Shown piece by piece: positions 1,346 through 63,910 of a stretch of 64,000 nucleotides of DNA. The translations under genes and the position numbers were made by a program. The notes under the pieces are model-generated. The model had not been told where the DNA came from, ran no database searches, and worked only from the letters and a program-made list of their open reading frames with translations. Source of the DNA: an uncultured Clostridiaceae bacterium (GTDB taxonomy: Bacteria > Bacillota > Clostridia > TANB77 > CAG-508); contig CATLFA010000002.1 of the NCBI GenBank assembly GCA_949927585.1, forward strand, positions 25,825 to 89,824, written 5' to 3'. Within the stretch, counting starts at the first letter, position 1, and every line of letters begins with the position of its first letter.

Positions 1346-1401
1346 AAATAGTGAATAATGAATAATTTGGGCAATAAGAAAATTATTCACATTCACTATT
1401 T
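1346..1401. repeat. Imperfect palindrome 'aaatagtgaataatgaataatt...aattattcacattcactattt', member of the AATAGTGAATAATGAATA module family
   Basis: Inverted repeat read directly; the same word recurs at 47031-47046 and 47138-47170. Confidence 0.6.
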
Positions 1402-1548
1402 ATTTTGGTGTATATGAGAAATCGACTTAAAAGTATAGGGATGATTATTTTCTTAGCTTTTCAAGAGAGAGTAGCAAGTTAGCAATAAGTTATGCAGAGC
1501 AAATTGCCTGCTCTTTAAAGGGATAGCTTAAATAGAGGAGGTAAAAGT

Positions 1549-4782: not shown

Positions 4783-4812
4783 TAAAGAAGACGACCTAAA
4801 AAGTCGTCTTTT
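4783..4812 (+). terminator. Rho-independent terminator after the carD-like gene
   Basis: Hairpin 'aagacgacc-taaaaa-gtcgtctt' followed by a T-run. Confidence 0.7.
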
Positions 4813-4840: not shown

Positions 4841-4990
4841 TTGTAGGGAATAGAATCGCTCGTGTGTTATTTGAGGAATTTATTTAAATGAATAATAAAG
4901 AGTACAAACCTGAGGTTTGATGTAGGGGCTAAATTGGTAAGGAATGCCTAAGAGAATTTACCAAATTTAGCCCTTAAAATTTTTGCAGGT
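4841..4990. repeat. Composite intergenic repeat with ACAAACCTgAGGTTTGATGTAGGGG and GGTAAGGAATgCCTAAGAGAATTTACC modules
   Basis: Modules recur at 47071-47096 and 45450-45476; local GC is higher than the surroundings. Confidence 0.6.
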
Positions 4991-5081
4991 TTTTATAAAT
5001 TTATTGACTAAAAAATAACTTATTGGTAAAATATCACTATAAGATTATCAACAAATAGACATAAAACTAAGGAGAAAAAAT

Positions 5082-10980: not shown

Positions 10981-11150
10981 TTTGTTTTAGAAGTCAGATG
11001 TCAGAGGTTAAAATACCTCTTTAGATTCCTGACATTTATTTAATAGAAGTTGGAGGCCAGAGTTAAAGGTTGGAATATAGGGCAATTTCTACGAAGTATT
11101 AGCCCTAATATCTAACTTCCAACTTCTAACCTCTAACATCTATATAATAA
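10981..11150. repeat. Large imperfect palindromic intergenic repeat (AGAAGTTGGAGG... / ...CTAACTTCCAACTTCTAACCTCTAAC arms) between nfeD and the SPFH gene
   Basis: Left arm 'agaagttggagg...aaggttggaat' and right arm 'ctaacttccaacttctaacctctaac' are reverse-complementary heptad-like runs; same family as 28241-28330, 53942-54048 and 54591-54723. Confidence 0.65.
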
Positions 11151-17299: not shown

Positions 17300-17400
17300 T
17301 TTTATCACCTAATAAAAATTTTACAATAAATTATGTGTTTTTGCTTTCATAAATAGTGAAAGTATGTTATAGTGGATAATATAAAAATAGGAGGTAATAT

Positions 17401-18264
17401 ATGAAAAATGAAAAGTTAAAAGAAAATAGTAAATGTGATAAGATAAATGGAATAACATTAATTTCTTTAATAATAACAATAATAGTGTTAATTATCTTAG
17501 CAGGTGTAGCCATATACTTAAGTGTAGGAAATAATGGGATATTTAATACAGCAAAAGAAGCAAAAGAGTTAACAAATAAACAAATAGCGACAGAAAAGAT
17601 AAATTTGAAAATAACAACGGCGCAGATGAATAAATATGCAGAAAGGCAAGAAATGCCAACTCTAAAGGAATTATCAGAAGTATTAAGAGATGATATGGAA
17701 ATAGCATATGTAACAGAGAAAAGTCAAATAGCAAGTACTAAATATGAAGTAGGAGAAAATCCAAGTTCAATATATACAAAATTAAATGATTATTCATATG
17801 AATTTGAAATAAATGGTAAGTTGCAATTAGCAAGTATAAATGGAATAAAAATTGCAGAAAATGAAGAAAGTAATTTATTTGATTATTCAACTAATGAAGA
17901 AAGAATAGTAGGTAAATGGGTAAATGGAAAAAATGTTTATGAAAAGTTTTTAGATATAGGTAATGCTACACAATATGGGTTAGTATATGATGGGAAGAGT
18001 CAAGGAGTATCGATTCCAGAAAAAGAGATATGTAGTAACATAGATGAGATAATTGCTAGTCAAGTTAGATGTACTGGGATGTATTATAATACAAGAACAT
18101 TGCCTTTTGGATGGGGAGGTATATATACCAATTATGCTACCATATCACATGAGTATTCAAATAAAAAAATTATGTTATGGATGGCTGAGGAATGTACACG
18201 ATCTGAAAATAGCAATACAGCCAAAATTCAGATTATTATTCAATATACTAAAACTAATAATTAA
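17401..18264 (+). CDS. Hypothetical secreted/membrane protein with a prepilin-like N-terminus (non-canonical, Ser at +5)
   Basis: 'KINGITLISLIITIIVLIILAGVAIY' resembles a class III signal peptide / pilin N-domain (G|ITLIS) but lacks Glu5. Confidence 0.4.
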   Translation: MKNEKLKENSKCDKINGITLISLIITIIVLIILAGVAIYLSVGNNGIFNTAKEAKELTNKQIATEKINLKITTAQMNKYAERQEMPTLKELSEVLRDDMEIAYVTEKSQIASTKYEVGENPSSIYTKLNDYSYEFEINGKLQLASINGIKIAENEESNLFDYSTNEERIVGKWVNGKNVYEKFLDIGNATQYGLVYDGKSQGVSIPEKEICSNIDEIIASQVRCTGMYYNTRTLPFGWGGIYTNYATISHEYSNKKIMLWMAEECTRSENSNTAKIQIIIQYTKTNN

Positions 18265-19618: not shown

Positions 19619-19885
19619 AAAATTACTTCTCCTTTCGAACATATCTTTATTATTTTATACATATTTTATCATATATTACAACAAAATTGTGAAAATTGTG
19701 TGACAATTTTGTTGATTTTATAAAAACATACATATATAATAATATCATAAAAAGCAAGAATAAAATTTTCTAAGCTCATTCTTCGCTGAGAAAATCTAAT
19801 TCTTCCATAACTATTTTCTAAGGAAACTCATGTACTTACGTGGATGACTTTCCAAAGAATATAGAAAGAAAGGAAATATGAAAAA

Positions 19886-20056: not shown

Positions 20057-20362
20057 CAAGAAAACGAAATGAACAAAGAAGAAAACCCATTAAAAGGCTT
20101 AAAAGTTTCAGAAAATTTAGAAGATGAAAAAATAAAAAGCCTAATAGAAAATAAAGTAATAAATGCCGAAGACGAAAACTTTGATAAATATTATATAATA
20201 AATTCAGAAACACTAAACGAACTAAAATTACAAGATAACCTAAAAGGAGAATATTACATAGTAAATTACAAAACTTATGAAATAATATACTCAAAAGGAA
20301 TTGAAATAAAAAACGAAATGCACTATACATTAACTGAAATTTTAGAACATACAGAGAAATAG
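20021..20362 (+). CDS. Hypothetical protein (113 aa)
   Basis: ORF only; overlaps the preceding small ORF in another frame. Confidence 0.3.
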   Translation: MLLVQGKIKVIEQENEMNKEENPLKGLKVSENLEDEKIKSLIENKVINAEDENFDKYYIINSETLNELKLQDNLKGEYYIVNYKTYEIIYSKGIEIKNEMHYTLTEILEHTEK

Positions 20363-20371: not shown

Positions 20372-20999
20372 TTGAAAGAAAAAGAATTACAAAGATTAAT
20401 AGAATTAAAACAAATAGAAGAAAACTTACATTCACAAGGAATAGAATACATATGTGGAATAGATGAAGCAGGACGTGGGCCATTAGCAGGGCCAGTGGTA
20501 GTTGCAGCAGCAATAATGCCAAAAGATTCAATGATAGAAGGAGTAAATGACTCTAAAAAAGTATCAGAGAAAAAAAGAGAATTACTATATGAAAAAATAA
20601 CTCAAGAAGCAATAGCATGGGGAGTAGGAATAATAGACCAAAAAGAAATAGATAGAATAAACATACTAAATGCAACAAAAGAAGGTCTAACAGAAGCGGT
20701 AAAAGCATTAAGTGTAACACCAGATAGAATAATAGTAGATGCACTAAATGGAATAGATACGCTTCGGAATACCATACACATCAATAATAAAAGGAGATGC
20801 AAAATGCTATTCAATAGCAGCAGCTTCAATAATAGCAAAAGTAACAAGAGATAGAATAATGCGTCAATGGGATGAAATATATCCTATGTATGGATTTGAA
20901 AAACATAAAGGTTATGGAACAAAAGCACACATAGAGGCAATAAAAGAATATGGATTATGCCCATTACATAGATTAAGTTTTACTAAAAATATTCACTAA
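20372..20999 (+). pseudogene. rnhB: Ribonuclease HII, interrupted by a single-base (+1) frameshift near codon 135
   Basis: N-terminal 'CGIDEAGRGPLAGPVVVAAAI' in frame 1 stops at 20854. The conserved C-terminal half '[31 protein letters not shown]...[10 protein letters not shown]' continues in the +1 frame to 20999. Deleting the C in 'cttCgga' (20768) fuses them. Confidence 0.8.
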
Positions 21000-21035
21000 A
21001 AGGACACCATTAAAAAAAGAAAAGAGAAAGATAAA

Positions 21036-25172: not shown

Positions 25173-25260
25173 AACTATATCCTCCTTGAAAATAGAATAT
25201 CATTTATATTTCGACTTTATTCTATCATATAGAATAGAAAAGAGCAAGTAGTTTTTTGTT

Positions 25261-25312
25261 CCCATTCCAATTAGGGACGTTTCCAATTGGGAAATCTGTC
25301 ACTAATTGGAAT
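25261..25312 (+). repeat. TTGGGAC-word element copy B (diverged: cccattccaattagggacgtt-tccaattgggaa-atctgtcactaattggaat)
   Basis: Same three-unit layout as copies A and C, with CCAATTGG palindromic variants. Confidence 0.55.
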
Positions 25313-26589: not shown

Positions 26590-28239
26590 ATGGATTATAA
26601 GGATTTAGCAAATTTAATATTTCCAGATTCAAAGGAAATTTCATATTATGAAGAAAAATATAAAAAAAGAGACCTACCAGAAGGAGCAATAGTAACAAGA
26701 TTTGCACCAAGCCCAACAGGTTTTGTACACTTAGGTTCACTATACCAAGTAGTAATAGCAAGAAAAATGGCTAAGCAAACAGGTGGGGTATTCTTTTTAA
26801 GAGTAGAAGATACAGACCAAAAAAGAGAAGTAGAAAATGGTGTAACAGGAATAATAGAATCTTTAAGAGATTTTGGTTTAACTCCTGATGAAGGTATGAT
26901 AAATGAAACAGAGGAAATAGGAGAATATGGACCATATAAACAATCATTAAGAAAAGACATCTACCAAGCATATGCTAAGCACTTATTGGAGCAAGGTAAG
27001 GCATACCCATGTTTTGCAAGTGCTGAAGAATTAGATGAAATGAGAGCAAAACAAGAAGCAGCAAAAATTCGCCCAGGTTATTATGGAGTATGGGCAAAAT
27101 ATAGAAACTTAACAGTAGAAGAGGCAGTGGAAAAAATAAAAAATGGAGAGCCATACATTATACGTTTAAAATCTCCAGGTAGAGAAGATAGAAAAATAAA
27201 ACATCATGATGTAATAAAAGGAAATGTAGATTTCCCAGAAAATGACCAAGATATAGTAATAATAAAAGCAGATGGACTACCAACATACCACTTTGCACAC
27301 GCAGTAGATGACCACCTAATGGGAACAACACATGTAATACGTGGAGATGAATGGCTATCATCAGTACCACTTCACTTACAATTATTCCAAATGTTAGAAT
27401 TTAAAGCACCAAAATATGCACACATAGCACCAATAATGAAGGAAGACGAAGGAGGAAAACGTAAGCTAAGCAAACGTAAAGACCCAGAAGCAGCAGTAAG
27501 TTACTATACGCAAATAGGTGTGCCAAAAGAAGCTGTAACAGAATACTTGCTAAATATAGCAAACTCAAACTTCGAGCTATGGAGAAAACAAAATTCAGAT
27601 GCTTCTATAGATGAATTCGAACTACAACTAAATAAAATGAGTGTAAGTGGAGCACTATTTGACATAGTAAAAATATTAGATATAGCAAAAACAGTAATAT
27701 CAAAATATACAGCTGATAGCATATATGAAGAAGCCACTAATTGGGCAAAAACATATGACGAAGAACTATATAAGCTATTGCAAGACAAAGAATATGCCCT
27801 AAAAGTATTTGGAATAGAAAGAGGCAACGCAAAACCAAGAAAAGACATAGCAAAATGGTCAGATGTAAAAGAAAATATAGAATATATGTATGATGAAGAA
27901 TTCTATAAAAAAGAAAGAACATACGAATATCAAAAAGTAACAGACAAAGAACTAATAAATAAAATAATAACATTATACATGGAAAAATACTATAACGAAA
28001 ACGACGATAAACAAACATGGTTTGACAAAATAAAAGACTTAGCCGAAGAAGTAGGTTTCGCAAGAGAAGTAAAAGAATGGAAAAAAGAACCAGAGAAATG
28101 GCCAGGCCACGTAGGAGATATAAGCACAGTATTAAGAGTAGCCCTAACCTCAAAAGCAAATACACCAGACATGTACGAAATAATGGAAGTGTTAGGAAAG
28201 ACACGAATATTCAAACGTTTTGAAGAAGCAATGAAATAA
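26590..28239 (+). CDS. gltX: Glutamate--tRNA ligase family class I aminoacyl-tRNA synthetase
   Basis: 'RFAPSPTGFVHLG' (HIGH region) and 'KLSKRK' (KMSKS); GluRS/GlnRS-type catalytic core. Presence of gatCAB in the window is consistent with a non-discriminating GluRS. Confidence 0.7.
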   Translation: MDYKDLANLIFPDSKEISYYEEKYKKRDLPEGAIVTRFAPSPTGFVHLGSLYQVVIARKMAKQTGGVFFLRVEDTDQKREVENGVTGIIESLRDFGLTPDEGMINETEEIGEYGPYKQSLRKDIYQAYAKHLLEQGKAYPCFASAEELDEMRAKQEAAKIRPGYYGVWAKYRNLTVEEAVEKIKNGEPYIIRLKSPGREDRKIKHHDVIKGNVDFPENDQDIVIIKADGLPTYHFAHAVDDHLMGTTHVIRGDEWLSSVPLHLQLFQMLEFKAPKYAHIAPIMKEDEGGKRKLSKRKDPEAAVSYYTQIGVPKEAVTEYLLNIANSNFELWRKQNSDASIDEFELQLNKMSVSGALFDIVKILDIAKTVISKYTADSIYEEATNWAKTYDEELYKLLQDKEYALKVFGIERGNAKPRKDIAKWSDVKENIEYMYDEEFYKKERTYEYQKVTDKELINKIITLYMEKYYNENDDKQTWFDKIKDLAEEVGFAREVKEWKKEPEKWPGHVGDISTVLRVALTSKANTPDMYEIMEVLGKTRIFKRFEEAMK

Positions 28240-28240
28240 G

Positions 28241-28330
28241 AAGTTGGAAGTTGGAAATTGGAGATTTAGAGTAAATACTTCAAAGAATTTACTTCAAGTC
28301 CGACCTCTAACTTCTAACCTCCAAAATAGA
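28241..28330. repeat. Palindromic intergenic repeat: heptad arm 'gaagttggaagttggaaattggagatttagag', core 'gtaaatacttcaaagaatttac', complementary arm 'ctctaacttctaacctccaaaat'
   Basis: Arms are reverse complements built from AGTTGGA/TCCAACT heptads; the core matches the 53942-54048 copy. Confidence 0.65.
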
Positions 28331-30589: not shown

Positions 30590-30762
30590 ATTTAAGTTCC
30601 TCACTTTTTCATATTCTTAGGAAACTTACAACCATGGTAGGTAATTTTCCTAAGAATACAGTTATAAAAGAATTAGATTTTCTTATATGGTTTTGCCACT
30701 TAGAAAATTTTATTCTTGCTTTTTAATTATACATATAAAATTAATTTTAAAACTATAAGTTA

Positions 30763-32046: not shown

Positions 32047-32420
32047 AATTTACCTCCTTAGTTCCCATTGGGGACGTTATCTCTGCTTAAGTTATCTGTA
32101 ATTCGCTAACGCTCAAACAACTAACTTATCCTTTTGGGGTATCTGTCACTTTTGGGAATTTTTTTATTTTAAAATGTATGGGCTTGGCCTTGTGTGTGCC
32201 CGCGTGGCGAAGCCACTTTTGTTCCTACATTATAATAAAAACAAAAGCCCTTATGCCTAATAAAAGCATAAGGGCGAATATTTTTCGCGGTGCCACCTTA
32301 ATTTAATTTTGGCTTTTATAAACCAAAAATTAATCTCTGAAATGCTTATAACCTAGCACAACACGGTTTCACTTTTTAGGTGAAAAGCAATAAAAGTAGA
32401 TTCCTAATTTGTTTTAACCT
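32047..32420 (-). ncRNA. T-box riboswitch leader of serS, with a ~190-nt repeat-derived insertion between terminator and RBS
   Basis: On the minus strand: T-box consensus AAUUAAGGUGGCACCGCG (plus 32286-32297) and terminator GCCCUUAUGC-UUUUAUUAG-GCAUAAGGGC + U-run (plus 32237-32275). Downstream are a GGCCTTGTGTGTGCCCGC module (32170-32215) and TTGGGAC element copy C (32064-32159), then RBS 'aaggagg' and ATG. Confidence 0.8.
32064..32159 (+). repeat. TTGGGAC-word element copy C (arms as in copy A, with a ~60-nt internal insert)
   Basis: 'cccattggggacgtt' ...60 nt... 'ttttggggtatctgtcacttttgggaat'. Confidence 0.7.
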
Positions 32421-32643
32421 AACTTACACCAACCGCAGGCTCTCTTTATAAAACTTAAAATTAGTACTATTCTTTTATTATAGCCATTTATTATTAATAA
32501 ATAGTTTAACACAGAAACAATAAAAATACAACTAAAAATATTGAAAAAATAAATTTTATATGACAAACACATATTATGTAACCATAAAAAGAAAAGATGT
32601 TTACAAAATATAAACATTCATAAAATTGCAGGAGGAAATAACT

Positions 32644-36206: not shown

Positions 36207-36377
36207 ATAGAGATTAGAGGTTAGGCGTTAGAAAGAAAAAGCCAATTTATAAATAAAAGATAAAAAGATAAAAACACGCATATTATCAAATAATTTGCGT
36301 GTTTTTTTAAATACTTTAAATTACATAAATAGTATGCTATAATAACACTATAAAAAAATTTAAGGAGGTATATGTAC

Positions 36378-40817: not shown

Positions 40818-40959
40818 AAAAATATTGTAGGGTAGGGGAAACATTTGTAAGAATACCTAGTAGGATAAAAATTAAGCTATATACCCTTCTCTCATATTAT
40901 AGGAAAAACGAAATTTTACATTGAATTTATAAAAATTTATTATACAAGGAGAAAAAAGA

Positions 40960-45145: not shown

Positions 45146-45433
45146 ATGAAAGTAAGTAAAGAAGAAATTTTGCATATAGCAAAACTTGCAAACTTAAATT
45201 TAAAAGAAGAAGAAATAGATACTTATTTACTACATTTACAAGATATTCTAAACTTTGCAAACATAGTAAATAACGCCCCAGTAGAAGGGTTAAAAGAGAC
45301 AATAGGTACAAATAAAAATTATAATGTATTTAGAAAAGATGAAATAATAAATTTTGAAGATAATGAAGCATTACTAGCAAATGCACCAGAAAAAGAAAGA
45401 AATATGTTCAAAATACCAAAAGTAATACAATAG
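45146..45433 (+). CDS. gatC: Asp-tRNA(Asn)/Glu-tRNA(Gln) amidotransferase subunit C
   Basis: 95 aa, '[21 protein letters not shown]' GatC signature; precedes gatA and gatB. Confidence 0.85.
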
Positions 45434-45490
45434 CTGTAGGGAATTAATCGGTAAGGAATACTTAAGAGAATTTACCGAATTACGCCCAAA
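45434..45490. repeat. Intergenic repeat module 'ctgtagggaattaatcggtaaggaatacttaagagaatttaccgaattacgccc' inside the gatC-gatA spacer
   Basis: Matches 4935-4961 (ggtaaggaatgcctaagagaatttacc) and partially 63870-63900 (gattaatcggtaagtaatac). Confidence 0.6.
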
Positions 45491-45527
45491 ATATAACATT
45501 CAAACTCAAAGAAAGGGAGTAAATTTA

Positions 45528-47000
45528 ATGGAAATTACAGAATTAACAGTTCACGAACTAAAAGAAAAATTAGCAAACAAAGAATTAACAATAACTGAAA
45601 TAACAAAGGCCTATGCAGATAGAATAGAAGAAAAAGAAAAGGGTATAGGAGCTTTTGTAACAATATTAAAAGAGGATGCCATGAAAAAGGCACAAGAAAT
45701 AGAAGAAAAAGTAAAAGCAAACGAAATAAAAGGAGACTTAGCAGGTATTCCAATAGGAATAAAAGATAATATCTGTACAAAAGGAATAGCTACAACATGT
45801 AGTTCAAAAATGCTAGAAAACTTTGTTTCACCATATGATGCAACAGTAATGGAAAAAGTAAATAATGAAAACATGATTAATTTGGGAAAATTAAACATGG
45901 ACGAGTTTGCAATGGGTGGCTCAACAGAATACTCAGCATTCCATGTAACTAAAAACCCATGGAACTTAAATAAAGTACCAGGAGGCTCATCAGGGGGAGT
46001 AGCAGCAGCAGTTGCAGCTGGAATGGTGCCTTGGGCATTAGGCTCAGACACAGGTGGTTCAATACGTCAACCAGCTTCTTTTTGTGGAGTAGTTGGAATG
46101 AAGCCAACATATGGTTTAGTATCACGTTATGGTTTAGTAGCATTTGCATCATCACTAGACCAAATAGGGCCAATAACAAAAGATGTAGAAGACTGTGCTA
46201 TGCTTTTAAATGTAATAACAGGTCATGACGAAAAAGATTCAACATCAGAAAATAGAGAAAAAGTAGATTACACATTAAGTCTAAAAAATGATGTGAAAGG
46301 AATGAAAATAGGAATTCCGAAGGAATTCTATGGAGAAGGTATAAGTGAAGAAGTAAAACAAAAGTTAGAAGAGGCAATACAAAAATACAAAGAACTAGGA
46401 GCAGAAGTAGAAGAATTTTCATTAGATATTGCAAACTATGCCTTAGCAACATACTACATTATAGCATGTGCAGAAGCAAGTTCAAACTTAGGAAGATTTG
46501 ATGGGATTCGTTATGGTTACAGAACACCAAACTATGAAAACCTAAAAGATATATACAAAAATTCAAGAACTGAAGCTTTTGGAGATGAAGTAAAAAGAAG
46601 AATAATACTAGGAACTTATGTATTATCATCAGGATATTATGATGCATACTACAAAAAAGCACAACAAGTACGTACATTAGTACAAGCAAAATTTGATGAA
46701 GCCTTCAGCAAATATGATGTTATATTAACACCAACAGCACCAACAACAGCATTTAATATAGGTGAAAAAAAGGCGAACCCACTAGAAATGTATTTAGCAG
46801 ATATTTGCACAGTATCAGTAAATATAGCAGGTCTTCCAGGAATATCAATTCCATGCGGACTAGATAAAGAAGGAATGCCAATAGGAATGCAACTAATAGG
46901 TCAAAAATTCAGTGAAGAAACTTTATTAAATGCAGCATACACATTTGAGCAAGCTGTAAAATTTAGAAAAAATTATAAGCCAGAATTCAAAAACATATAA
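45528..47000 (+). CDS. gatA: Glutamyl-tRNA(Gln) amidotransferase subunit A
   Basis: Amidase signature '[45 protein letters not shown]'. Confidence 0.95.
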
Positions 47001-47200
47001 TAAATACTGTAGGGGTCGCACTCTAACTAATTTGTCAAAGGTAAATAGTGAATAATGAGAGTTAAGAGGACAAACCTAAGGTTTGATGTAGGGGCAGGCC
47101 TTGTGTTTGCCCGCACTTCAAATAAATGGCTTAGATGAATAGTGAATAATGAATAGTGAAGAGTGAATAGTACACACTTCGCGTGGAGGAGGAACAATAG
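47001..47200. repeat. 200-nt composite intergenic repeat cluster between gatA and gatB
   Basis: Contains 'aaatagtgaataatgagag', 'acaaacctaaggtttgatgtaggggc', 'aggccttgtgtttgcccgc' and tandem 'aatagtgaataatgaatagtgaagagtgaatagt'; each module is shared with other loci in the window. Confidence 0.7.
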
Positions 47201-48643
47201 ATGTCTAGAGAAGACTATGAAATAGTAATAGGACTTGAAGTACATGCTGAGCTTTCTACAAAAACAAAAATATTTTGTAGTTGCCCAACTGAATTTGGTG
47301 GGGAGCCAAATACACATACTTGTCCAGTATGTATGGCAATGCCAGGAGCATTACCTGTACTTAACGAAAGAGTAGTAGAGTATGCAGTAAAAGCAGGTCT
47401 TGCTACAAATTGTGAAATAGCAAGAAACAGTAAAAATGATAGGAAAAACTACTTCTACCCAGACCTTCCAAAGTCATACCAAATATCGCAATTTGATATG
47501 CCACTTTGTGAAAAAGGATATGTAGAAATAGAAGACGAAAATGGAGAAAAGAAGAAAATAGGAATAACACGTATACATATAGAAGAAGATGCAGGGAAGC
47601 TAAACCATAATGAATTTGGTGGAGGAAGTTTAGTAGACTTAAACAGGGCAGGAGTACCACTAATAGAAACTGTATCAGAGCCAGATATACGTAGTAGTAA
47701 AGAAGCAGAAAATTACTTAAGAAAATTAAAGTCTATATTTGAATACATAGAAGTATCAGACTGTAAAATGCAAGAAGGTTCATTTAGAGCAGACGTAAAC
47801 GTTTCTGTAAGGAAAAAGGGAGCAAACGAGTTTGGAACACGTACAGAAATGAAAAATATGAGCTCATTTAGAAGTATAGTAAGAGCAATAGAATATGAAG
47901 CAGATAGGCAAATAGATGTAATAGAAGAAGGCGGGAAAATAGAACAAGAAACACTAAGATGGGACGATGTATCAGGAAAAACATTCTCAATGAGAGATAA
48001 AGAAGATGCACAAGACTACCGATATTTCCCAGACCCAGACCTAGTAGCAATAAAACTATCAGATGAATATATAGAAAATATAAAAAATAATCTACCAGAG
48101 TTGCCAGAAAGTAGAAAAGCAAGGTATATGAGTGAATTGGGCTTATCAGAAAAAGATAGTAATTTACTTACAGCATCAAAACACTTATCAAATATGTTTG
48201 AAAAAGCATCTGCAATTTGTAAAAATCATAAACTAGTTGCAAACTGGCTATTATCAGATATTTCAAGAATATTAAATGAAAAAGAAATAGAAGCAGACCA
48301 AATACCATTTACAGCAGAAGAATTAGCCAAAATGATTACACTAATAGAAAAAGGAACAATAAGTAGTGCAATAGCTAAAAAAGTAGTAGAAGAATTATTC
48401 GAAAACCCAAAAGACCCAGAAGAAATAATAAAAGAAAAAGGCTGGATACAAATATCAGATGAAGGAGCAATAAAAGAAGTAGTACAAAAAATAATACAAG
48501 CAAACCCACAGTCAGTAGCAGACTTCAAAGCTGGAAAAGACAAAGCAGTAGGTTTCTTAGTAGGTCAAGCAATGAAAGAAACAAAAGGAAAAGCAAACCC
48601 ACAAATGCTTAATAAGATGTTTATAGAAGAATTAAAGAAATAA
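47201..48643 (+). CDS. gatB: Aspartyl/glutamyl-tRNA amidotransferase subunit B
   Basis: 'YEIVIGLEVHAELSTKTKIFCSC' N-terminus, GatB/YqeY C-terminal domain. Confidence 0.95.
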   Translation: MSREDYEIVIGLEVHAELSTKTKIFCSCPTEFGGEPNTHTCPVCMAMPGALPVLNERVVEYAVKAGLATNCEIARNSKNDRKNYFYPDLPKSYQISQFDMPLCEKGYVEIEDENGEKKKIGITRIHIEEDAGKLNHNEFGGGSLVDLNRAGVPLIETVSEPDIRSSKEAENYLRKLKSIFEYIEVSDCKMQEGSFRADVNVSVRKKGANEFGTRTEMKNMSSFRSIVRAIEYEADRQIDVIEEGGKIEQETLRWDDVSGKTFSMRDKEDAQDYRYFPDPDLVAIKLSDEYIENIKNNLPELPESRKARYMSELGLSEKDSNLLTASKHLSNMFEKASAICKNHKLVANWLLSDISRILNEKEIEADQIPFTAEELAKMITLIEKGTISSAIAKKVVEELFENPKDPEEIIKEKGWIQISDEGAIKEVVQKIIQANPQSVADFKAGKDKAVGFLVGQAMKETKGKANPQMLNKMFIEELKK

Positions 48644-52163: not shown

Positions 52164-52358
52164 TTATTTCATTTGGCTTTCAGCTTGTTGTATTAATTTT
52201 CTAACCATGTTACCACCTATTTTACCAGCATCTCTTGCAGAGATATTTCCGTTGTATCCGTCTTTTAAACTTACACCAACTTCGCTAGCAACTTCGTGTT
52301 TAAATCTGTTAAGAGCTTCTCTAGCTTCTGGAACTACTTTAGAGTTTGAGTTTGTCAT
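52164..52358 (-). CDS. Alpha/beta-type small acid-soluble spore protein
   Basis: 'VPEAREALNRFKHEVASEVGV' and 'GGNMVRKLIQQAE' SASP signatures. Confidence 0.9.
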   Translation of the reverse strand: MTNSNSKVVPEAREALNRFKHEVASEVGVSLKDGYNGNISARDAGKIGGNMVRKLIQQAESQMK

Positions 52359-52523
52359 TTTATTTCACCTCCTGAAAATTTTAGATTTCATTATATATAT
52401 TGCACAAATAGTAAAAAAATAAACTGGAAATTTTTAGAAAATATTGACTTTTTATGTAAATTGAATTATAATATAAAAAGATAAAATAACGAATATTTCT
52501 TTTTTTAATAAGGAGGAAAATTA

Positions 52524-52867: not shown

Positions 52868-53068
52868 CTATTTACCAGCCATTTGTCTTTCAGCTGTTTC
52901 GATTAATTTTCTAACCATGTTACCACCTATTTTACCAGCATCTCTTGAAGTTATATCACCATTATAACCTTGTTTTAAGTTAACACCAACTTCGCTAGCA
53001 ACTTCATATTTGAATTTGTTTAAAGCTTCTCTAGCTTCTGGAACTACTTTAGAGTTTGAATTTGTCAT
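52868..53068 (-). CDS. Alpha/beta-type small acid-soluble spore protein (second copy)
   Basis: 'VPEAREALNKFKYEVASEVGVNLKQGYNGDITSRDAGKIGGNMVRKLIE'. Confidence 0.9.
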   Translation of the reverse strand: MTNSNSKVVPEAREALNKFKYEVASEVGVNLKQGYNGDITSRDAGKIGGNMVRKLIETAERQMAGK

Positions 53069-53239
53069 TTTTTTTCACCTCCTAAATGTATATAATTGAA
53101 AAACGTAAAAAATGTTTTTCTAATATTAGAATGTTCAAAAAAAGTAAAAATAAACTACCAATTTTTTGAAAAATGAAAAATAAAATCGAAATGAATATAA
53201 AAATCATAAAAGAGTAAAATAAAAATGAGGTGTTTTTTA

Positions 53240-53490: not shown

Positions 53491-53941
53491 ATGAGAATGT
53501 CAGATATAATAGAAGATTTTATAAAAGATTTATTTACAGAAGAGGATGAATATATAGAAATACAAAGGAATGATTTAGCTCAGCAATTTAATTGTGTACC
53601 ATCGCAAATAAACTATGTAATATCAACTAGGTTTAAACCATCGCAAGGCTATTATGTAGAAAGTAAGCGTGGAGGTCGGCGGGCATATAAGAATAAAAAA
53701 AATAAATGTAACAAAAAGCAATTACTTTATGCACATAATAAATAGTATAGAAGAATACTTATCAAGTCAGGAGGCAGATATATTTATTAGTAATTTTTTA
53801 TCTTATAACATGATAAATGAGAGTCAAGCAAAGTTATTAAAAGTAGCAACAAGCGACAATGTACTAACAATTCCTCAACCAATAAGAGACCAAATACGTG
53901 CAAAGCTATTTAAGAATATGTTAGTAAACTTAATCGATTAA
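53491..53941 (+). pseudogene. ctsR: Class III stress gene repressor CtsR, interrupted by a single-base (+1) frameshift in the glycine-rich hinge
   Basis: Frame 1 '..[36 protein letters not shown]'; +1 frame '[28 protein letters not shown]...'. Deleting C53677 ('ggtCggc') restores the conserved 'ESKRGGGGHIRI'. Confidence 0.85.
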
Positions 53942-54048
53942 AAATTAGATATTAGAAGTCGGAGGTTAAAACTTGAAGTTTAGGGTAAATTCTTCGAAGA
54001 ATTTACTAAAGAATCCAACCTCCAACTCCAAAAAAGGAGAGATAGTTA
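53942..54048. repeat. Palindromic intergenic repeat between ctsR and mcsA (arms 'ttagaagtcggaggttaaaacttgaagtttaggg' / 'ctaaagaatccaacctccaactccaaa'; perfect core 'gtaaattcttcgaagaatttac')
   Basis: Same architecture as 28241-28330. Confidence 0.65.
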
Positions 54049-54590
54049 TGAAATGTGAAAACTGTGGAGAAAACGAAGCAAATGTAAAATATACACAAAT
54101 AATAAACGGAGTAAAAAAGCAAATGTCATTATGTGACAAATGTTCTGAAAAGTTAGGAATTGATGATGTGAAATTTAATATGCCAATTAACTTTTCAAGT
54201 TTTTTAGGAGATGTATTTGATATATATGAAGATACTTTTCCAGAGATTATAAAGCCAAAAACATTAACCTGTGATAGATGCAATATGACATATGATGAAT
54301 TTTTACAAACAGGTAAATTTGGATGCGAAGAATGTTATGAAGTATTTAAAACAAAATTAGACCCAATATTAAAAAACATACATGGAGTTAATAGGCATGT
54401 TGGAAGAATTGGAAATTGCAATAATAGTTCTGAAAATCTTGAAAACATAGATGACTGTAAAAACAATATAGAAAAACAAAAAGAAGGAAAAACGCAATTA
54501 GAAGAAAGGTTAAAACAAGAAATAAAAGAAGAACGCTATGAAGACGCAGCAAAAACAAGAGATGAAATTAAAAAAATGAATAGAAGTTAG
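54048..54590 (+). CDS. mcsA: Protein-arginine kinase activator McsA
   Basis: Two CxxC zinc fingers ('CENCGE...CDKCSEKL', 'CDRC...CEEC') and C-terminal UVR motif ('ERYEDAAKTRDEIKKM'); RBS 'aaaggagag'. Confidence 0.8.
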   Translation: MKCENCGENEANVKYTQIINGVKKQMSLCDKCSEKLGIDDVKFNMPINFSSFLGDVFDIYEDTFPEIIKPKTLTCDRCNMTYDEFLQTGKFGCEECYEVFKTKLDPILKNIHGVNRHVGRIGNCNNSSENLENIDDCKNNIEKQKEGKTQLEERLKQEIKEERYEDAAKTRDEIKKMNRS

Positions 54591-54723
54591 AAATTAGAAG
54601 TCAGAAATAAAAGTTAGAAAATAGATTATATGGGTTGTAGCCTTTGGCAATCAAGTTTCAAAGAAATTACCCAAAAGTCCAACCCCAACTTTCAAAAACT
54701 AACTTTCATACAAGGAGGAGAAA
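54591..54723. repeat. Intergenic repeat between mcsA and mcsB ('agttagaaattagaagtcagaaataaaagttagaaaatag...ccaaaagtccaaccccaactttcaaaaactaactttc')
   Basis: AGTTAGA/AGAAGTC heptad-like arm and complementary CCAACCCCAACTT arm. Confidence 0.55.
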
Positions 54724-55749
54724 ATGAATTGGTATTTAGATAATGGAAAGGAATCTGATGTAGTTGTTAGTACAAGAATTAGATTAGCAAGAAATATAAA
54801 AGGAATGGCTTTTAAATCTAAACTTAATAAAGAGGGAATAAATGAATTGATAGAAAAAGTCAAATATATAACTCCTAGCATAGGATATGGGCTAAAATAC
54901 TTTAAATTAGAAGATATTGATACCATTACAAAATTATCATTAGTAGAAAAGCATATAATTAGTCCAGAAATCATATCTGACAAAAATGAAGAGACATCAG
55001 CAATATTAATTAATGATGAAGAAAATATTTGCATAATGATAAATGAAGAAGACCATATAAGAATTCAAGTATTCGGTAGTGGTTTGGAACTTAAAAATAC
55101 AATGAATTTAGCAAAAGAAATAGATAAAAAATTAGATAAATTATTACATTTTTCATCAAATAAAGAATATGGATATCTAACATCTTGTCCAACAAATGTA
55201 GGAAGTGGACTTAGGGCATCTGTAATGGTACATCTGCCAGCACTAAAACTAACAGGAAACATATCAAAAATATTACATATAATTCACAATTTTGGAATGA
55301 CAATTAGAGGAATATATGGAGAAGAAAGTGAAAGTAAAGGAGATATGTATCAAATTTCTAACAATCAAACATTAGGAATATCAGAAGATGAAATTATTAA
55401 TAATTTAGAAAATATAACTAAGAAAGTAATGGAGCAAGAACGTCTAGCAAGAAAATATTTAGTAAAAGAAAAAATAGAACTAGAAGATAAAGTATATAGG
55501 TCATATGGAACACTTACAAATGCAGTAAAAATAAGCTCAGACGAATGCATAAAGCTACTTTCAGATGTTAAGTTAGGAACAGACTTAGGAATAATGACAG
55601 AATTAACAGATAAAAAAATAAAAGAGCTAGAACTATATACAAAACCATCAAACTTACAAAAGAAATTAGGAAATATAATAAATGCATATGATAGAGATAT
55701 TGAAAGAGCAAAAGTGATAAAGCAAATTATTAAAACTGGGGAAAAATAA
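54724..55749 (+). CDS. mcsB: Protein arginine kinase McsB
   Basis: Phosphagen-kinase motifs 'YLTSCPTNVGSGLRASVMVHLPAL'. Confidence 0.9.
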   Translation: MNWYLDNGKESDVVVSTRIRLARNIKGMAFKSKLNKEGINELIEKVKYITPSIGYGLKYFKLEDIDTITKLSLVEKHIISPEIISDKNEETSAILINDEENICIMINEEDHIRIQVFGSGLELKNTMNLAKEIDKKLDKLLHFSSNKEYGYLTSCPTNVGSGLRASVMVHLPALKLTGNISKILHIIHNFGMTIRGIYGEESESKGDMYQISNNQTLGISEDEIINNLENITKKVMEQERLARKYLVKEKIELEDKVYRSYGTLTNAVKISSDECIKLLSDVKLGTDLGIMTELTDKKIKELELYTKPSNLQKKLGNIINAYDRDIERAKVIKQIIKTGEK

Positions 55750-55750
55750 A

Positions 55751-55786
55751 AAATCCCCATAAAGGGATTTTATTTGTTTTTTTTGT
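55751..55786 (+). terminator. Terminator 'aaaaatccccataaagggatttt' plus T-run after mcsB
   Basis: Hairpin 'atcccc-ataaa-gggat'. Confidence 0.6.
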
Positions 55787-55910
55787 CAATTGCCTGTGCT
55801 ATTATTATTGCTCCTGCTATTATACTTAAGGGTATAGATACTGACATTTCACAAGTAAGAGCCAAAATAATAATTATGGGTGTATAAATTAAAGATAAAA
55901 AAGTACTCAT
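55770..55910 (-). CDS. Small hydrophobic peptide (46 aa), antisense between mcsB and clpC
   Basis: RBS 'ataggagga' 7 nt before ATG 55910; MSTFLSLIYTPIIIILALTCEMSVSIPLSIIAGAIIIAQAIDKKNK (single TM, charged tail). Confidence 0.35.
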   Translation of the reverse strand: MSTFLSLIYTPIIIILALTCEMSVSIPLSIIAGAIIIAQAIDKKNK

Positions 55911-56054
55911 AAAATCCTCCTATTGGGAACACCTTAGTTAATATACTAAGGGCGACAAGTCCAAATGGACAATAAATAGTTATATATATTATAACACAAT
56001 TGACATAAAAATGCAATGAAATTAATTAAAAAATTAGTAAGCTAAAAGAAGGAG

Positions 56055-56103
56055 TGTCCCTAATGGCAATTTTCTGCCAAAAAAGGCCGTCCCTTTTGGC
56101 AGA
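56055..56103 (-). repeat. TTGGGAC-word element copy E (reverse orientation), immediately upstream of the clpC RBS
   Basis: Reverse complement reads 'ccaaaagggacggcc...ccattagggacac', matching the GGGAC units of copies A-C. Confidence 0.5.
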
Positions 56104-56115: not shown

Positions 56116-58575
56116 ATGACATATAAATTTACAAAAAGAGCTGAGAAAGCAATTGAAATTGCAAATAATATAGTAGGGACTCTAGGACATAATTATATAG
56201 GTACAGAGCATCTTTTGTATGGTTTAGTAAAAGAGGGCGCTGGAATTGCAAGTAAAGTATTAGAAAATCAAGGTGTTACAGCAGAAAAAGTAATGGTAGA
56301 AATAGAAAACCTTATAGGTATAAATCAAGATAGTGCAAGTGAAATTAATACTGCAATTGGTTTTACACCTAGAACTAAAAGAGTAATTGAAACAGCTTTT
56401 AGAGAGGCTAAAAAACAAGGGAACGATTATATAGGAACAGAACATTTATTAATAGGCATTATGAAAGAGGGAGATAGTGTAGCAGTAAGAATAATGCTTG
56501 ATTTAAATGTAGATCCTCAAAAATTATACAATGAAATTGTAAAGGTTTTAAATGAAGATGATATAACTTCAAACAATGGGAAAAGCTCAAGCTACAGTCA
56601 AAAAGGAAGCTATAATCAAACTACTACTTTAAACCAATATGGAACAGATTTGACTAAAAAAGCTGAGGAAGGAAAATTAGACCCTGTAATAGGTAGAAAA
56701 GATGAAATAGAAAGAGTTATACAAATACTTTCAAGAAGAAATAAGAATAATCCATGCTTAATAGGTGAGCCTGGAGTTGGTAAAACAGCAGTAGTTGAAG
56801 GTTTAGCTCAAAAAATAGTAGTAGGTGATGTACCAGAATTACTAAAAGATAAAAGAGTAGTAACTTTAGATATATCAGGAATGGTTGCAGGAGCTAAATA
56901 TAGAGGAGACTTTGAAGATAGAATAAAGAAGGTTTTAAATGAAGTAAAAAAAGCAGGAGATGTTATTTTATTTATTGATGAAATACATACTATTGTTGGA
57001 GCTGGCTCAGCAGAAGGAGCAGTAGATGCTGCAAATATTTTAAAACCACTTTTAGCAAGAGGAGAAATAAAAGTAGTAGGAGCAACTACACTAAATGAAT
57101 ATAGAAAATATATTGAAAAAGATAGTGCATTAGAACGAAGATTTAGCCCAGTAAATGTCCAAGAGCCAACTGCTGAAGATACTATAAAAATATTAGAAGG
57201 TATTAGAGATAAATATGAAGCACATCATAATGTGAAAATTACTGAAGAAGCAATTAAATCAGCAGTAGAACTTTCAGTAAGATATATAAATGATAGGTTT
57301 TTGCCAGATAAAGCAATAGATTTAATAGACGAGGCAGCTTCTAAAATTAGAATGAAAGCATATACACAACCAGAGTCAATAAAAAATATAGAAGAAAAAA
57401 TAGAAAAAATAGAAAAAGAAAAAGTAGATAGTGTTCACATGCAAGACTTTGAAAAAGCTGCAAAATTAAGAGATGATAAAAAAGAATTAGAAGAAAAATT
57501 AGAAAAAGAAAAGAAAAAGTGGGAAAGTAAAAATAGTAAAGCTATAATTACACTTACAGAAGAAGATATTGCAGAAGTAATTGCTAGTTGGACTAGAATA
57601 CCTGTAAAAAGACTAACTCAAGATGAAAATGAGAAACTTAAAAATCTTGAAAAAACATTACATGAAAGGGTAATAGGTCAAAATGAAGCAGTAGAAGCTG
57701 TAAGCAAAGCAATAAGAAGAGGAAGAGTAGGTTTAAAGGACCCAAACAGACCAATAGGTTCATTCCTATTTTTAGGTCCAACAGGTGTAGGAAAAACAGA
57801 GCTTTCAAAAGCATTAGCAGAAAGCTTATTTGGAAAAGAAGATTCAATGATAAGAATAGATATGTCGGAATATATGGAAGGACATAGTGTTTCAAAATTA
57901 ATTGGTTCACCTCCCGGATATGTAGGTTTTGACGAAGGCGGACAATTAACAGAAAAAATAAGAAGAAACCCATATTCAGTAATATTATTTGACGAAATAG
58001 AAAAAGCTCACCCAGATGTTATGAATATGCTACTTCAAATATTAGATGACGGAAGACTTACGGACAGTAATGGAAGAACAGTTAACTTTAAAAACACAGT
58101 AATTATAATGACTTCAAACATAGGTGCAAGATTAATAACAGATAAAAAATCATTAGGATTTGGCGGAACAAATAATACAAATGAAGAGTTTAAAAAGGAA
58201 TATGAAAACACAAAAAAAGATGTTTTAGCAGAACTCAAGAAAGAATTTAGGCCAGAATTCATAAACCGTATTGACGAAATAATAGTATTCCACAAATTAC
58301 AAAATGAAGAAATAAAACAAATTATAGATATAATGCTTTCGCAAGTTACAAAACGTTTAAAAGAGCAAAATATAGAAATAGAAATTAGTGAAGAAGTAAA
58401 AGACAAAATACTAGAAAATGGAGTAGACACAAACTTCGGAGCTCGCCCATTAAAAAGAGCAATACAAAATATGCTAGAAGACAAAATTGCAGAAGCAATA
58501 TTAGATGGAAAAATAAAAAAAGGAAAAAAAGCAAATGTACAATTAAATGATGACAAAGAAATAATAATAAAATAA
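56116..58575 (+). CDS. clpC: ATP-dependent Clp protease ATP-binding subunit ClpC
   Basis: Two Clp-N repeats, two AAA+ modules (Walker A 'GEPGVGKT' and 'GPTGVGKT'), UVR linker. Confidence 0.95.
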   Translation: MTYKFTKRAEKAIEIANNIVGTLGHNYIGTEHLLYGLVKEGAGIASKVLENQGVTAEKVMVEIENLIGINQDSASEINTAIGFTPRTKRVIETAFREAKKQGNDYIGTEHLLIGIMKEGDSVAVRIMLDLNVDPQKLYNEIVKVLNEDDITSNNGKSSSYSQKGSYNQTTTLNQYGTDLTKKAEEGKLDPVIGRKDEIERVIQILSRRNKNNPCLIGEPGVGKTAVVEGLAQKIVVGDVPELLKDKRVVTLDISGMVAGAKYRGDFEDRIKKVLNEVKKAGDVILFIDEIHTIVGAGSAEGAVDAANILKPLLARGEIKVVGATTLNEYRKYIEKDSALERRFSPVNVQEPTAEDTIKILEGIRDKYEAHHNVKITEEAIKSAVELSVRYINDRFLPDKAIDLIDEAASKIRMKAYTQPESIKNIEEKIEKIEKEKVDSVHMQDFEKAAKLRDDKKELEEKLEKEKKKWESKNSKAIITLTEEDIAEVIASWTRIPVKRLTQDENEKLKNLEKTLHERVIGQNEAVEAVSKAIRRGRVGLKDPNRPIGSFLFLGPTGVGKTELSKALAESLFGKEDSMIRIDMSEYMEGHSVSKLIGSPPGYVGFDEGGQLTEKIRRNPYSVILFDEIEKAHPDVMNMLLQILDDGRLTDSNGRTVNFKNTVIIMTSNIGARLITDKKSLGFGGTNNTNEEFKKEYENTKKDVLAELKKEFRPEFINRIDEIIVFHKLQNEEIKQIIDIMLSQVTKRLKEQNIEIEISEEVKDKILENGVDTNFGARPLKRAIQNMLEDKIAEAILDGKIKKGKKANVQLNDDKEIIIK

Positions 58576-63842: not shown

Positions 63843-63910
63843 AATCATAAAAGCAATTTATAGAATAAGAGATTAATCGGTAAGTAATACTAAAATTATA
63901 CACTAAATAA

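Follow-up and report, generated by a model that had tools for sequence, protein, structure and literature searches.

The window analysed here (the whole 64,000-nt stretch, from contig CATLFA010000002.1 of an uncultured Clostridiaceae bacterium) has a G+C content of about 28%, with more G than C on the + strand across its whole length, and the + strand carries most of the genes. NCBIfam profiles place gatC at 45146-45433, gatA at 45528-47000, gatB at 47201-48643, mcsA at 54048-54590, mcsB at 54724-55749 and clpC at 56116-58575 and also confirm gltX; Pfam adds nfeD beside a stomatin/hflK-like gene, fur and a DUF951 gene. Counterparts of GatB and of the PASTA kinase with 98-100% identity were found solely in metagenome-assembled contigs labelled Clostridia bacterium, and exact look-ups of the GatA of the window and of the 100%-identical GatB returned no record. 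Intergenic DNA makes up about 15% of the window, and about 13 of the spacers bear modules of three repeat groups, which are heptamer-armed long hairpins, GC-rich stem-loops with a TGTAGGG(G) tag, and hairpins with a GGGAC core (Table 1). These modules are probably non-coding, hairpin-forming dispersed repeats that exist at the DNA level, are of the repetitive extragenic palindrome/bacterial interspersed mosaic element (REP/BIME) or MITE (miniature inverted-repeat transposable element) kind, and belong to a clade of uncultured low-GC Clostridia.

Repeat modules in the intergenic DNA of the window

An earlier note on this DNA had listed five module types; all five were recovered in the window, 0-11 nt from the positions given there, and their recurrence is far above chance. 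The heptamer-armed hairpins have purine-rich 5' arms (runs of TAGAAGT, TGGAAGT, TGGAGGT or CAGATGT), complementary 3' arms and an apical palindrome in between, with two to five heptad units per arm. Four sites had been described as sharing both the arms and one core palindrome. The architecture is present at all four, but the exact core GTAAATWCTTCRAAGAATTTAC is found at two only (28271-28292 and 53985-54006, and nowhere else in the window), while the elements at 10981-11150 and 54591-54723 have the same arms and apical hairpin with another apical sequence. The profile of the apical region (A type) gave E = 1.7e-6 at 11067-11119 and E of about 0.01 at 54657-54684. Arrays of at least two heptads occur four times as YRGARRT and twice as its complement, all of them intergenic, where Markov simulations predicted 0.17 and 0.02. 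A second heptamer, GAATAGT, forms the arms of the hairpin at 1340-1405 and two direct runs in the gatA-gatB spacer. The GTGAA-type runs proposed for 1346-1401 and 47138-47170 are there (AATAGTGAATAATGAATA at 1347-1364 and 47138-47155), and the one proposed for 47031-47046 had been misplaced by about 11 nt (17-mer TAAATAGTGAATAATGA at 1345-1361 and 47042-47058).

The other listed modules are longer words with two copies each. ACAAACCTRAGGTTTGATGTAGGGG, assigned to 4900-4925 and 47071-47096, was located at 4904-4928 and 47070-47094; GGCCTTGTGTKTGCCCGC, assigned to 32184-32205 and 47096-47113, at 32186-32203 and 47097-47114; and GGTAAGGAATRCYTAAGAGAATTTACC, assigned to 4935-4961 and 45450-45476, at 4936-4962 and 45450-45476. 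The partial copy of the last module suspected at 63870-63900 is real as well (20 nt at 63872-63891, 95% identity). Both the 18-mer GGCCTTGTGTKTGCCCGC and the 25-mer ACAAACCTRAGGTTTGATGTAGGGG had two matches against 0.00 expected over 100 shuffles, and TGTAGGG had seven against 2.57 +/- 1.55, seven of seven on the + strand and six of them intergenic. By structure, C-type elements lie at 4921-4976 and 45435-45492, with remnants at 4842, 40826 and 63870, and D-type elements at 47087-47116 and 32174-32230; the E type is represented by a left half at 47008-47021, with the whole palindrome in a strain with 99% GatB identity (L006), and the B type was seen in relatives only. The C-type and A-type profiles weakly detect each other's members because both types end in AGAATTTACC. 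Absent from the earlier list are the GGGAC-core hairpins, found at 25259-25312, 32062-32158 and 56051-56102. Unlinked spacers of the window have stretches in common, with identities of 94% over 32 nt, 85% over 47 nt and 81% over 54 nt.

The modules enlarge spacers inside operons, as had been claimed: gatA-gatB measures 200 nt, gatC-gatA 94 nt, ctsR-mcsA 106 nt and mcsA-mcsB 133 nt. Their G+C fraction (0.32-0.40) is also higher than that of most other intergenic regions (0.12-0.25). The impression that the modules were unfamiliar was borne out, as none matches any Rfam family; a search of the whole window at the gathering threshold and of the spacers at permissive thresholds returned nothing relevant beyond the serS T-box. 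BLAST searches of the spacers against GenBank plasmids and phages gave no meaningful match, and a string search of the literature for the heptads and tags yielded no relevant paper. Identical repeat sequences are present in the independent assemblies L007, L008 and L030, and the repeats are therefore no assembly artefacts. As a separate observation, positions 6270-6315 of L008, at the end of that public contig, are an Illumina adapter (AGATCGGAAGAGCGTCGTGTAGGGAAAGAGTGT) that contains TGTAGGG by coincidence.

Filled and empty sites in related lineages

Orthologous loci of relatives were retrieved through GatB similarity (identity to the window 90-91% for L005 and L027-29, 92% for L009-11, 94% for L026 and 99% for L006). 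The comparison showed that the modules are insertions placed between a stop codon and the ribosome-binding site (RBS) that follows it, and that they vary between strains whose flanking proteins are 98-99% identical. The premise that the gat and ctsR loci are normally nearly contiguous holds in relatives at 90-91% GatB identity, in which they are tight or overlapping. In L005 and L027-29 gatA and gatB overlap by one base, and the spacer is 170-200 nt long in L009, L026, L006, L007 and the window; ctsR-mcsA is 12-13 nt in L005 and L009, and mcsA-mcsB 1-16 nt in L009 and L005, the spacers of this operon in L005 being 12-16 nt. Relatives at 90-92% identity have an NT5C gene 8-15 nt after gatC, and element E6 is not there. 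At serS, the distance from the T-box terminator to the RBS is 12 nt in L009, and the window has about 175 nt more at this place, made up of a D-type composite and a GGGAC element.

Filled sites differ in content. The 170-nt gatA-gatB spacer of L009-11 holds a heptad-armed hairpin unrelated to the window content, with a ctsR operon that is still tight. In L026 the same spacer has D-like and B-type modules, and the gatC-gatA spacer, occupied in the window by a C-type element, holds heptad arms that enclose TGTAGGGGCAGCTAGTAGCTGTCC. Even at 99% GatB identity, in L006, the D-type hairpin is shorter by 15-16 nt between TGT..TGT microhomologies, the ctsR-mcsA element has a B-type apex in place of the core palindrome, and the mcsA-mcsB element has about three 5' heptads fewer than in the window. 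The heptads at 47134-47171, common to lineages at 92-94% GatB identity, are the oldest portion of the gatA-gatB spacer. At mcsB-clpC three alleles occur in one species, namely an empty 13-nt site (L006), a clean element of about 250 nt bounded by hairpins of the GGGAC group (L030) and a rearranged form (window and L007) in which the right end is intact and a small - strand ORF (open reading frame) stands beside the left-end remnant. These three alleles are direct evidence of recent mobility of the GGGAC group.

Recurrence was also found outside the species. Scanning one genome per species for the core palindrome returned four loci, of which one was a chance match in coding DNA and three were real. 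The latter belong to other uncultured Clostridia or Clostridiaceae metagenome-assembled genomes (MAGs), at places that are not orthologous to the window sites. One lies between rpoB and an apparent rpoC, accompanied by elements of the C and B types; the other two are in an infC-rpmI spacer and after polA. A JGI metagenome scan for CCTRAGGTTTGATGTAGGGG, in which the clade is poorly represented, gave two chance matches only, on unrelated contigs of 40% and 56% GC. With a module order that differs by lineage, empty orthologous sites and recurrence at non-orthologous loci, the comparison with REP/BIME- or BOX-like mosaics made in the earlier note is supported.

Most elements fold well below shuffled sequences (z from -2.5 to -9.0). 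Such folding would also be expected if the elements were cis-regulatory RNA structures of single loci, acting as attenuators, as hairpins for processing or stabilisation or as translational couplers, that were selected operon by operon and whose mutual likeness is a by-product. The elements lie 10-25 nt upstream of ribosome-binding sites, their arms contain Shine-Dalgarno (SD)-like GGAGG and anti-SD-like CCTCC, and similar heptad hairpins follow capsid genes of phage contigs, all of which fits this explanation. We nevertheless regard it as unlikely, given that the elements are missing from the same operons of relatives at 90-92% GatB identity and that the strain at 99% has unrelated apical modules instead. 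Neither G·U asymmetry nor sense versus antisense folding energies had a consistent bias, so the sense strand has no folding advantage, and there is no Rfam match. Scanning of the gat and ctsR spacers revealed no promoter-like or terminator-like sites and no U-tract terminators, and the elements there are presumably co-transcribed; a T-rich tail follows E7 alone among the elements. The possibility that the modules are merely terminators or attenuators of single loci fails on the same lack of U-tracts in the operon spacers and on the presence of modules elsewhere. One copy lies outside any apparent transcript: the composite at 4842-4976 is apparently preceded by a terminator-like hairpin (4788-4810) and followed by a promoter-like site (5004-5032), both found in the promoter/terminator scan. 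In the serS leader, moreover, the D-type 18-mer and the GGGAC element keep their usual + orientation, which is opposite to that of serS, a - strand gene. The T-box leader of serS itself (32267-32490, - strand, 101.7 bits) has been displaced by the repeat insertions to about 220 nt from the start codon.

Table 1. Repeat elements and remnants in the window, with position, strand, identity and characteristics
Position	Strand	Element	Characteristics
1340-1405	+	Hairpin E7	Arms of (GAATAGT/GAATAAT) heptads and complement; loop TTTGGGCAATAAGAA; T-rich tail after; -22.2 kcal/mol, z = -9.0; 18-mer common to 47138-47155
4842-4880	+	Remnant, 5' half of TGTAGGG-tagged C-type element (TGTAGGGAATAGAATCG...)	TGTAGGG match; start like 45435 element
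4904-4920	+	Mini-hairpin CAAACC-TGA-GGTTTG	Immediately 5' of TGTAGGGG tag; part of 25-mer
4921-4976	+	C-type element E5	TGTAGGGG tag, then 16-bp stem (GGGCTAAATTGGTAA / TTACCAAATTTAGCCC); z = -4.5; nhmmer E = 7e-20
10985-11036		Short heptad-armed hairpin E8 (TAGAAGT CAGATGT CAGAGGT ...)	z = -3.5; between nfeD and stomatin/hflK-like gene, both on - strand
11040-11146		Long heptad-armed hairpin E3	Apical TAGGGCAATTT...ATTAGCCCTA; A-type profile E = 1.7e-6; -38 kcal/mol whichever strand, z = -6.2
25259-25312	+	GGGAC-core hairpin (CCAATTAGGGACGTTTCC..GGAAATCTGTCACTAATTGG)	-21.6 kcal/mol; matches 32134-32165; about 95 nt upstream of fur; related to inverted repeats flanking Y1 gene
28236-28325	+	Heptad-armed hairpin E1	Core palindrome 28271-28292; between gltX and DUF951 gene; -29.6 kcal/mol, z = -5.2; 54 nt 81% identical to 53955-54007
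32062-32158	+	GGGAC-core element (TTCCCATTGGGGACG ... TCTGTCACTTTTGGGAA) with inner hairpin	Between T-box terminator and serS RBS; serS on - strand; not at orthologous site in L009
32174-32230		D-type composite, bounds ATGTATGG...CCTACAT	Contains GGCCTTGTGTGTGCCCGC and GTGGCGAAGCCAC hairpin; not in L009
36207-36233	+	Orphan heptad array, 5'-arm remnant (TAGAGAT TAGAGGT TAGGCGT TAGAA)	Heptad scan
40826-40900	+	Probable member, degenerate C-type copy (TGTAGGGTAGGGGAAACATTTGTAAGAATACCTAGTAGGAT...)	TGTAGGG match; weak profile match, E = 0.16
45435-45492	+	C-type element E6	Occupies gatC-gatA spacer; nhmmer E = 9e-21; 47 nt at 85% identity to 4921-4967
47008-47021	+	Left half of E-type palindrome (TGTAGGGGTCGCAC)	Complete TGTAGGGGTCGC..GCGACCCCTACA in L006 at 20302-20340
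47042-47069	+	Heptad run (T)AAATAGT GAATAAT GAGAGTT AAGAGG	Repeat comparison
47070-47086	+	Mini-hairpin CAAACC-TAA-GGTTTG	Second copy of 25-mer module
47087-47116	+	D-type element	TGTAGGGG tag and stem-loop GGGCAGGC-CTTGT-GTTTGCCC
47134-47171	+	Heptad microsatellite (GATGAAT AGTGAAT AATGAAT AGTGAAG AGTGAAT AGT)	Ahead of gatB RBS
53948-54032	+	Heptad-armed hairpin E2	Perfect core palindrome 53985-54006; fills ctsR-mcsA; z = -2.5
54581-54712	+	Heptad-armed element E4	Fills mcsA-mcsB; weak fold, z = -1.5; first heptads contain mcsA stop codon
55921-56102		MITE remnant	Ends copy Y1-flanking inverted repeats; right end 56051-56102 (GGAGTGTCCC...CTGCCAAAAAAGGCCGTCCCTTTTGGCAG); left-end remnant TATTGGGAACACC at 55921-55933
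63870-63891	+	C-type element, 5' half (AGATTAATCGGTAAGTAATACT)	20 nt, 95% identity to 45443-45462; weak profile, E = 0.3

Several further features were observed at the same loci. In another assembly, a GatB-like product of 784 aa (P0001), which matches 92% of GatB at 88% identity, points to a gene call that runs through a gatA-gatB junction. The ctsR gene (53491-53941) is split into ORFs 53491-53745 and 53669-53941 by a 1-nt insertion at the codons of a conserved glycine-rich loop; the frameshift is also present in L006, L007 and L030, whereas ctsR is intact in L005 and L009, and the split gene is either a pseudogene or dependent on frameshifting. Between mcsB and clpC, a 46-aa hydrophobic ORF (MSTFLSLIYTPIIIILALTCEMSVSIPLSIIAGAIIIAQAIDKKNK; - strand, 55770-55910) adjoins a bidirectional terminator-like hairpin (55750-55771). 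This arrangement (55750-55933), beside the repeat remnant, resembles a type I toxin-like cassette and is not in L006 or L030.

Elsewhere in the window, two mutually inverted copies of a leader-like sequence (each about 90 nt) are separated by 10.8 kb (19748-19835 and 30637-30725; 27 nt at 100% identity), one upstream of ORF 20021/rnhB and the other upstream of the thymidine kinase gene. The sequence matches nothing in Rfam and is possibly a cis-regulatory leader not yet described. The rnhB gene (20372-21000) is itself apparently split, with ORF 20372-20854 covering positions 1-115 of 199 of the RNase_HII profile and the C-terminal part in another frame (20848-21000). Two genes for small acid-soluble spore proteins on the - strand (52170-52376 and 52880-53086) are 87% identical over 207 nt.

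The Y1 transposase gene and the possible spread of the repeats

No transposase was found among the mid-size ORFs of the window, nor in L001-L003 and L006. The PASTA kinase, 100% identical in L030 and L031, served to prolong the sequence beyond the window, so that the same-species sequence read comprises these 64 kb and about 10 kb more. In these contigs a Y1_Tnp gene (249 aa) lies about 9.35 kb past the window end, directly after queA. Its product scores 35.5 bits against Pfam Y1_Tnp (cut-off 23); the sole NCBIfam match is the REP-associated tyrosine transposase family (REP_Tyr_transpos; 73 bits, under the cut-off of 80) and the sole PDB match E. coli TnpA-REP (4ER8, E = 0.022). The protein has the HUH motif as NHAHIL or NHAHML and a tyrosine motif YIHNNP, Y---NP being the signature of class-2 (TnpA-REP) tyrosines (PMC6006769). 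A C-terminal extension of about 100 aa contains no Pfam domain at E < 0.01. Homologues (90% and 76% identity) stand in the order queA-Y1-tgt in nine of the ten loci with full context, over a span of 76-90% protein identity; in the tenth (L037) tgt is present and the neighbour on the upstream side is a fragment at the contig end that lacks Pfam annotation. L030 and L031 end inside the Y1 gene and give the queA side only, and L041 is too short for neighbours. Such a conserved position between queA and tgt is what a single-copy gene passed on vertically would show, as opposed to an insertion sequence. In L030, also beyond the window end, an 846-nt gene-free stretch (17352-18197; 30% G+C) is strongly folded and possibly contains a gene for a structured RNA.

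The Y1 gene is flanked on each side by two hairpins in inverted orientation, GAGTCAAAAGGGACGGCCTTTTTTGACTC and GCCAAAGGGGACA(G/C). The second fits GGGGWSAS, a motif described in the inverted repeats of TIRYT genes (PMC3733652), and the inverted REPa/REPb hairpins that bracket the gene contain GGGGACAG or GGGGACAC. Dispersed copies of the flanks are present at 56051-56102 of the window and at 3955-4215 of L030, and more degenerate ones at 25259-25312 and 32062-32158. In the outer stem, gene flanks and dispersed copies have compensatory changes (GAGTC/GACTC, GTGTC/GACAC, CTGCC/GGCAG); in an alignment of seven sequences only, both members have been exchanged in three pairs, the paired cells amount to 96% and none of 500 shuffles reached the score. 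Other traits may connect the gene with the remaining groups. In its 5' flank, TAGGGGCTAAT and TAGGGGCAATTT equal the opening bases of the C-type stem and of both E3 apex arms, the MAG with the infC-rpmI hairpin also has a Y1 gene, and a GGGAC element and the D-type composite are adjacent within the same serS-leader insertion. All seven TGTAGGG tags are on the leading, G-rich strand, the lagging-strand template. Placement on the lagging-strand template is the orientation expected of single-strand Y1 transposition.

If the modules are dispersed repeats of the REP/BIME or MITE kind, they would have spread at the DNA level as single-strand hairpins processed by this Y1 enzyme. Copies may later have decayed to half-elements and exchanged parts through recombination, and heptamers may have been gained and lost by replication slippage, which together would produce the mosaic. 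Within operons the elements would be co-transcribed as stable stem-loops and be tolerated because they have no U-tracts, so that transcription proceeds and operon function is kept; if they influence how the mRNA is processed, how stable it is or how the downstream cistron is translated, such effects would be secondary.

Several results weigh against this reading. None of the modules listed earlier recurs in the 9.8 kb of same-species sequence past the window, and the genome-wide copy number may be modest. The Y1 gene is flanked by GGGAC-core hairpins and not by TGTAGGG-tagged or heptad-armed modules, its sole resemblance to the tagged ones being a pair of TAGGGGC(T)AAT motifs in the 5' flank, so its link to these two groups would come down to co-occurrence and a shared 10-12-nt motif; strict GGGGWSAS does not occur in the intergenic DNA of the window. 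Covariation inside the modules listed earlier amounts to one or two pairs. Being pieced together from half-elements and direct heptad runs, the region at 47001-47150 has no folding advantage over shuffled sequences (z about -1). The strand bias of the tags is weak evidence, since base composition and gene orientation also favour it. Alignments of filled and empty sites revealed no recognisable target-site duplication or defined insertion target; to our knowledge, Y1-type elements produce no target-site duplication.

A more far-reaching proposal is that the heptamer-armed hairpins are an undescribed Y1 (TIRYT)-dependent element of Firmicutes. Its TAGGG(G)-tagged apex would be moved as single-stranded DNA into stop-to-RBS gaps, the arms would grow by concerted heptamer addition, and SD-like/anti-SD-like stems would tune downstream cistrons of essential operons (rpoB-rpoC, infC-rpmI, gatCAB, ctsR-mcsAB). 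We find this rather doubtful; if true, it would represent an active REP-like system of gut Clostridia with a direct regulatory effect.

The heptads could also have arisen in place, with spacers growing by microsatellite slippage and quasi-palindrome template switching without any transposition, heptamers expanding and local copying making the arms complementary. The strain difference in heptad number confined to one arm, the orphan arrays at 36207-36233 and within the 47134-47171 run, and the (TTAGAAG)n arrays in unrelated viral contigs agree with this. Bacterial heptameric repeats have, moreover, been described as over-represented, intergenic, variable and sometimes in inverted pairs in Xanthomonas and Nostoc (PMC4692102). 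Slippage cannot, however, put the same non-repetitive modules of 18-54 nt at unlinked loci or beside unrelated genes of other MAGs, and it leaves the clean-element and empty-site alleles of mcsB-clpC unexplained. As an account of the whole family it is improbable; most likely it accounts for the heptad arms alone, which are best explained by slippage, and template switching between arms could maintain their complementarity.

The viral arrays of (TTAGAAG)n (L012-L023; 27-66% G+C) in some cases form the two arms of a hairpin. One follows a major capsid gene (L017), one lies between two ORFs without Pfam match (L016) and one adjoins a GTAG-type GC hairpin (L023). The viral contigs scanned had no match to the 19-mer tag module or to the strict palindromic heptad pattern. 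Their 12 loci with (AGAAGTT)3, of mixed GC, more probably fit general heptamer microsatellites than the window family.

Omega-type repressors bind contiguous 7-bp repeats in direct and inverted order (WATCACW heptads). The contiguous heptads of the window have this format, AGTGAAT being one position off WGTGATW, and might thus be iterons with a regulatory or nucleoid-organising role, bound by an omega-type ribbon-helix-helix protein or by a helix-turn-helix tail of the Y1 protein, which has the C-terminal extension of about 100 aa. This is highly improbable: no candidate binding protein was found, that extension has no Pfam domain at the threshold given above, the heptad sequence varies among arrays (TAGAAGT, TGGAGGT, CAGATGT, GAATAGT), and the arrays are missing at orthologous sites of relatives. 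HutP-like UAGNNNN repeats, CsrA GGA sites, KOPS/Chi-like skewed motifs and, for the arms, nested self-insertion were dropped as unsupported.

The mosaic, which is specific to Clostridia and combines tagged palindromes with heptamer-armed hairpins and with hairpin repeats of the TIRYT type, is probably selfish DNA of a known kind and no novel type of system. It is noteworthy that it has colonised essential, normally contiguous operons and turns over at strain level, and that heptamer microsatellites are coupled to palindromic elements. Systems of the REP/RAYT type (RAYT, REP-associated tyrosine transposase) have so far been described mostly in Proteobacteria, and the present case is a fast-turnover repeat repertoire in uncultured gut Clostridia with a domesticated-looking Y1 transposase nearby. 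The repeats break short-read assemblies (many Y1-bearing contigs are about 1 kb long), inflate the intergenic distances used in operon prediction and can serve as strain-level markers. They also constitute a natural test of the tolerance for long co-transcribed hairpins between translationally coupled genes.

Comparison with known repeat systems

The REP/BIME elements and RAYT genes of E. coli, Pseudomonas and Stenotrophomonas (PMC3733652, PMC6006769) resemble the present repeats in being small extragenic GC-rich stem-loops, many of them after a GTAG-containing tag (TGTAGGGG), in forming clustered mosaics between co-directional genes and downstream of coding regions, in having several families per genome, and in the apparently single-copy Y1 transposase gene between inverted repeats. 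REPs usually number more than 100 per genome; in the 64 kb of the window about 13 spacers bear modules. The tag rule of REPs (GT[AG]G 0-2 nt 5' of a G/C-rich stem) applies to TGTAGGGG at 4921, 45435 and 47087 and to copies in L001, L006 and L026, and the heptad-armed elements have a degenerate tag only (TATAGGG, TTTAGGG). Like REPs, six of seven TGTAGGG matches and all heptad arrays are extragenic. The dimensions of a REP (20-40 bp, a small loop and a stem of 6-13 bp) apply to types D, B and E, for example GGGCAGGC-CTTGT-GTTTGCCC and GGGCGATTA-TT-TAATCGCCC, but not to the C type (56 nt, 15-nt loop) or the heptad-armed hairpins (85-130 nt), and both C and A types are longer and more AT-rich than a 20-40 bp REP. 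The tag, furthermore, is sometimes inside the stem here (TGTAGGGG...CCCCTACA), the window has no inverted REP doublets of the TGTAGGG type, and the Y1 gene is flanked by GGGAC hairpins rather than by the TGTAGGG hairpins that would be its cognates. The host also differs, being a Clostridia lineage of about 28% GC; a 2013 survey listed eight phyla, and its main text contains neither 'Firmicutes' nor 'Clostridi' (PMC3733652).

TIRtrons/TIRYT (TnpA-Y1 subclass 2.1, RAYT group 1) have terminal inverted repeats with GGGGWSAS and moderately abundant repeat families (PMC3733652; PMC6006769). The Y1 protein of about 250 aa with its C-terminal extension, HUH motif (NHAHI/ML) and YIHNNP is of this sort, as are the inverted flanking repeats with GGGGACAG or GGGGACAC, which fit that motif, and the dispersed copies, which occur as single ends and as an end-to-end element of about 250 nt. 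Subclass 2.1 genes have been described as devoid of identifiable REP-like secondary structures (PMC3733652; PMC6006769), whereas the flanks here are well-formed hairpins with covarying stems; the assignment to this subclass is putative. The window copies are also degenerate (AGGGACGT, GGGGACGT). In the manner of MITEs, the elements have heptad arms or TGTAGG..CCTACA ends, measure 52-250 nt, within the 50-500 bp usual for MITEs, and contain no ORFs.

BOX elements have defined boxA-B-C modules, and we know of no BOX, RUP or SPRITE element with heptamer arms or a GTAG-type tag. These repeats of Streptococcus pneumoniae (PMC3049150) are nevertheless comparable as modular, small interspersed repeats of a Firmicute, with variable module number and order, hairpins and an intergenic location that includes operons; a sequence relationship to the window modules was not seen. 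For the arms, the closest parallel is provided by intergenic heptameric simple sequence repeats, such as GGGAATC in Xanthomonas, GGGGA(T/C)T in Nostoc and the heptanucleotides of Calothrix (PMC4692102). As in those repeats, the tandem 7-nt units of the window are intergenic only, sometimes lie in operons or in convergent inverted stem-loop pairs, and differ widely in length and sequence among close relatives. The units are here purine- or AT-rich (YRGARRT, GAATAGT) and not G4-forming, and, unlike those of the heptameric repeats described before, they regularly pair as the arms of a single hairpin whose apex is a conserved palindrome.

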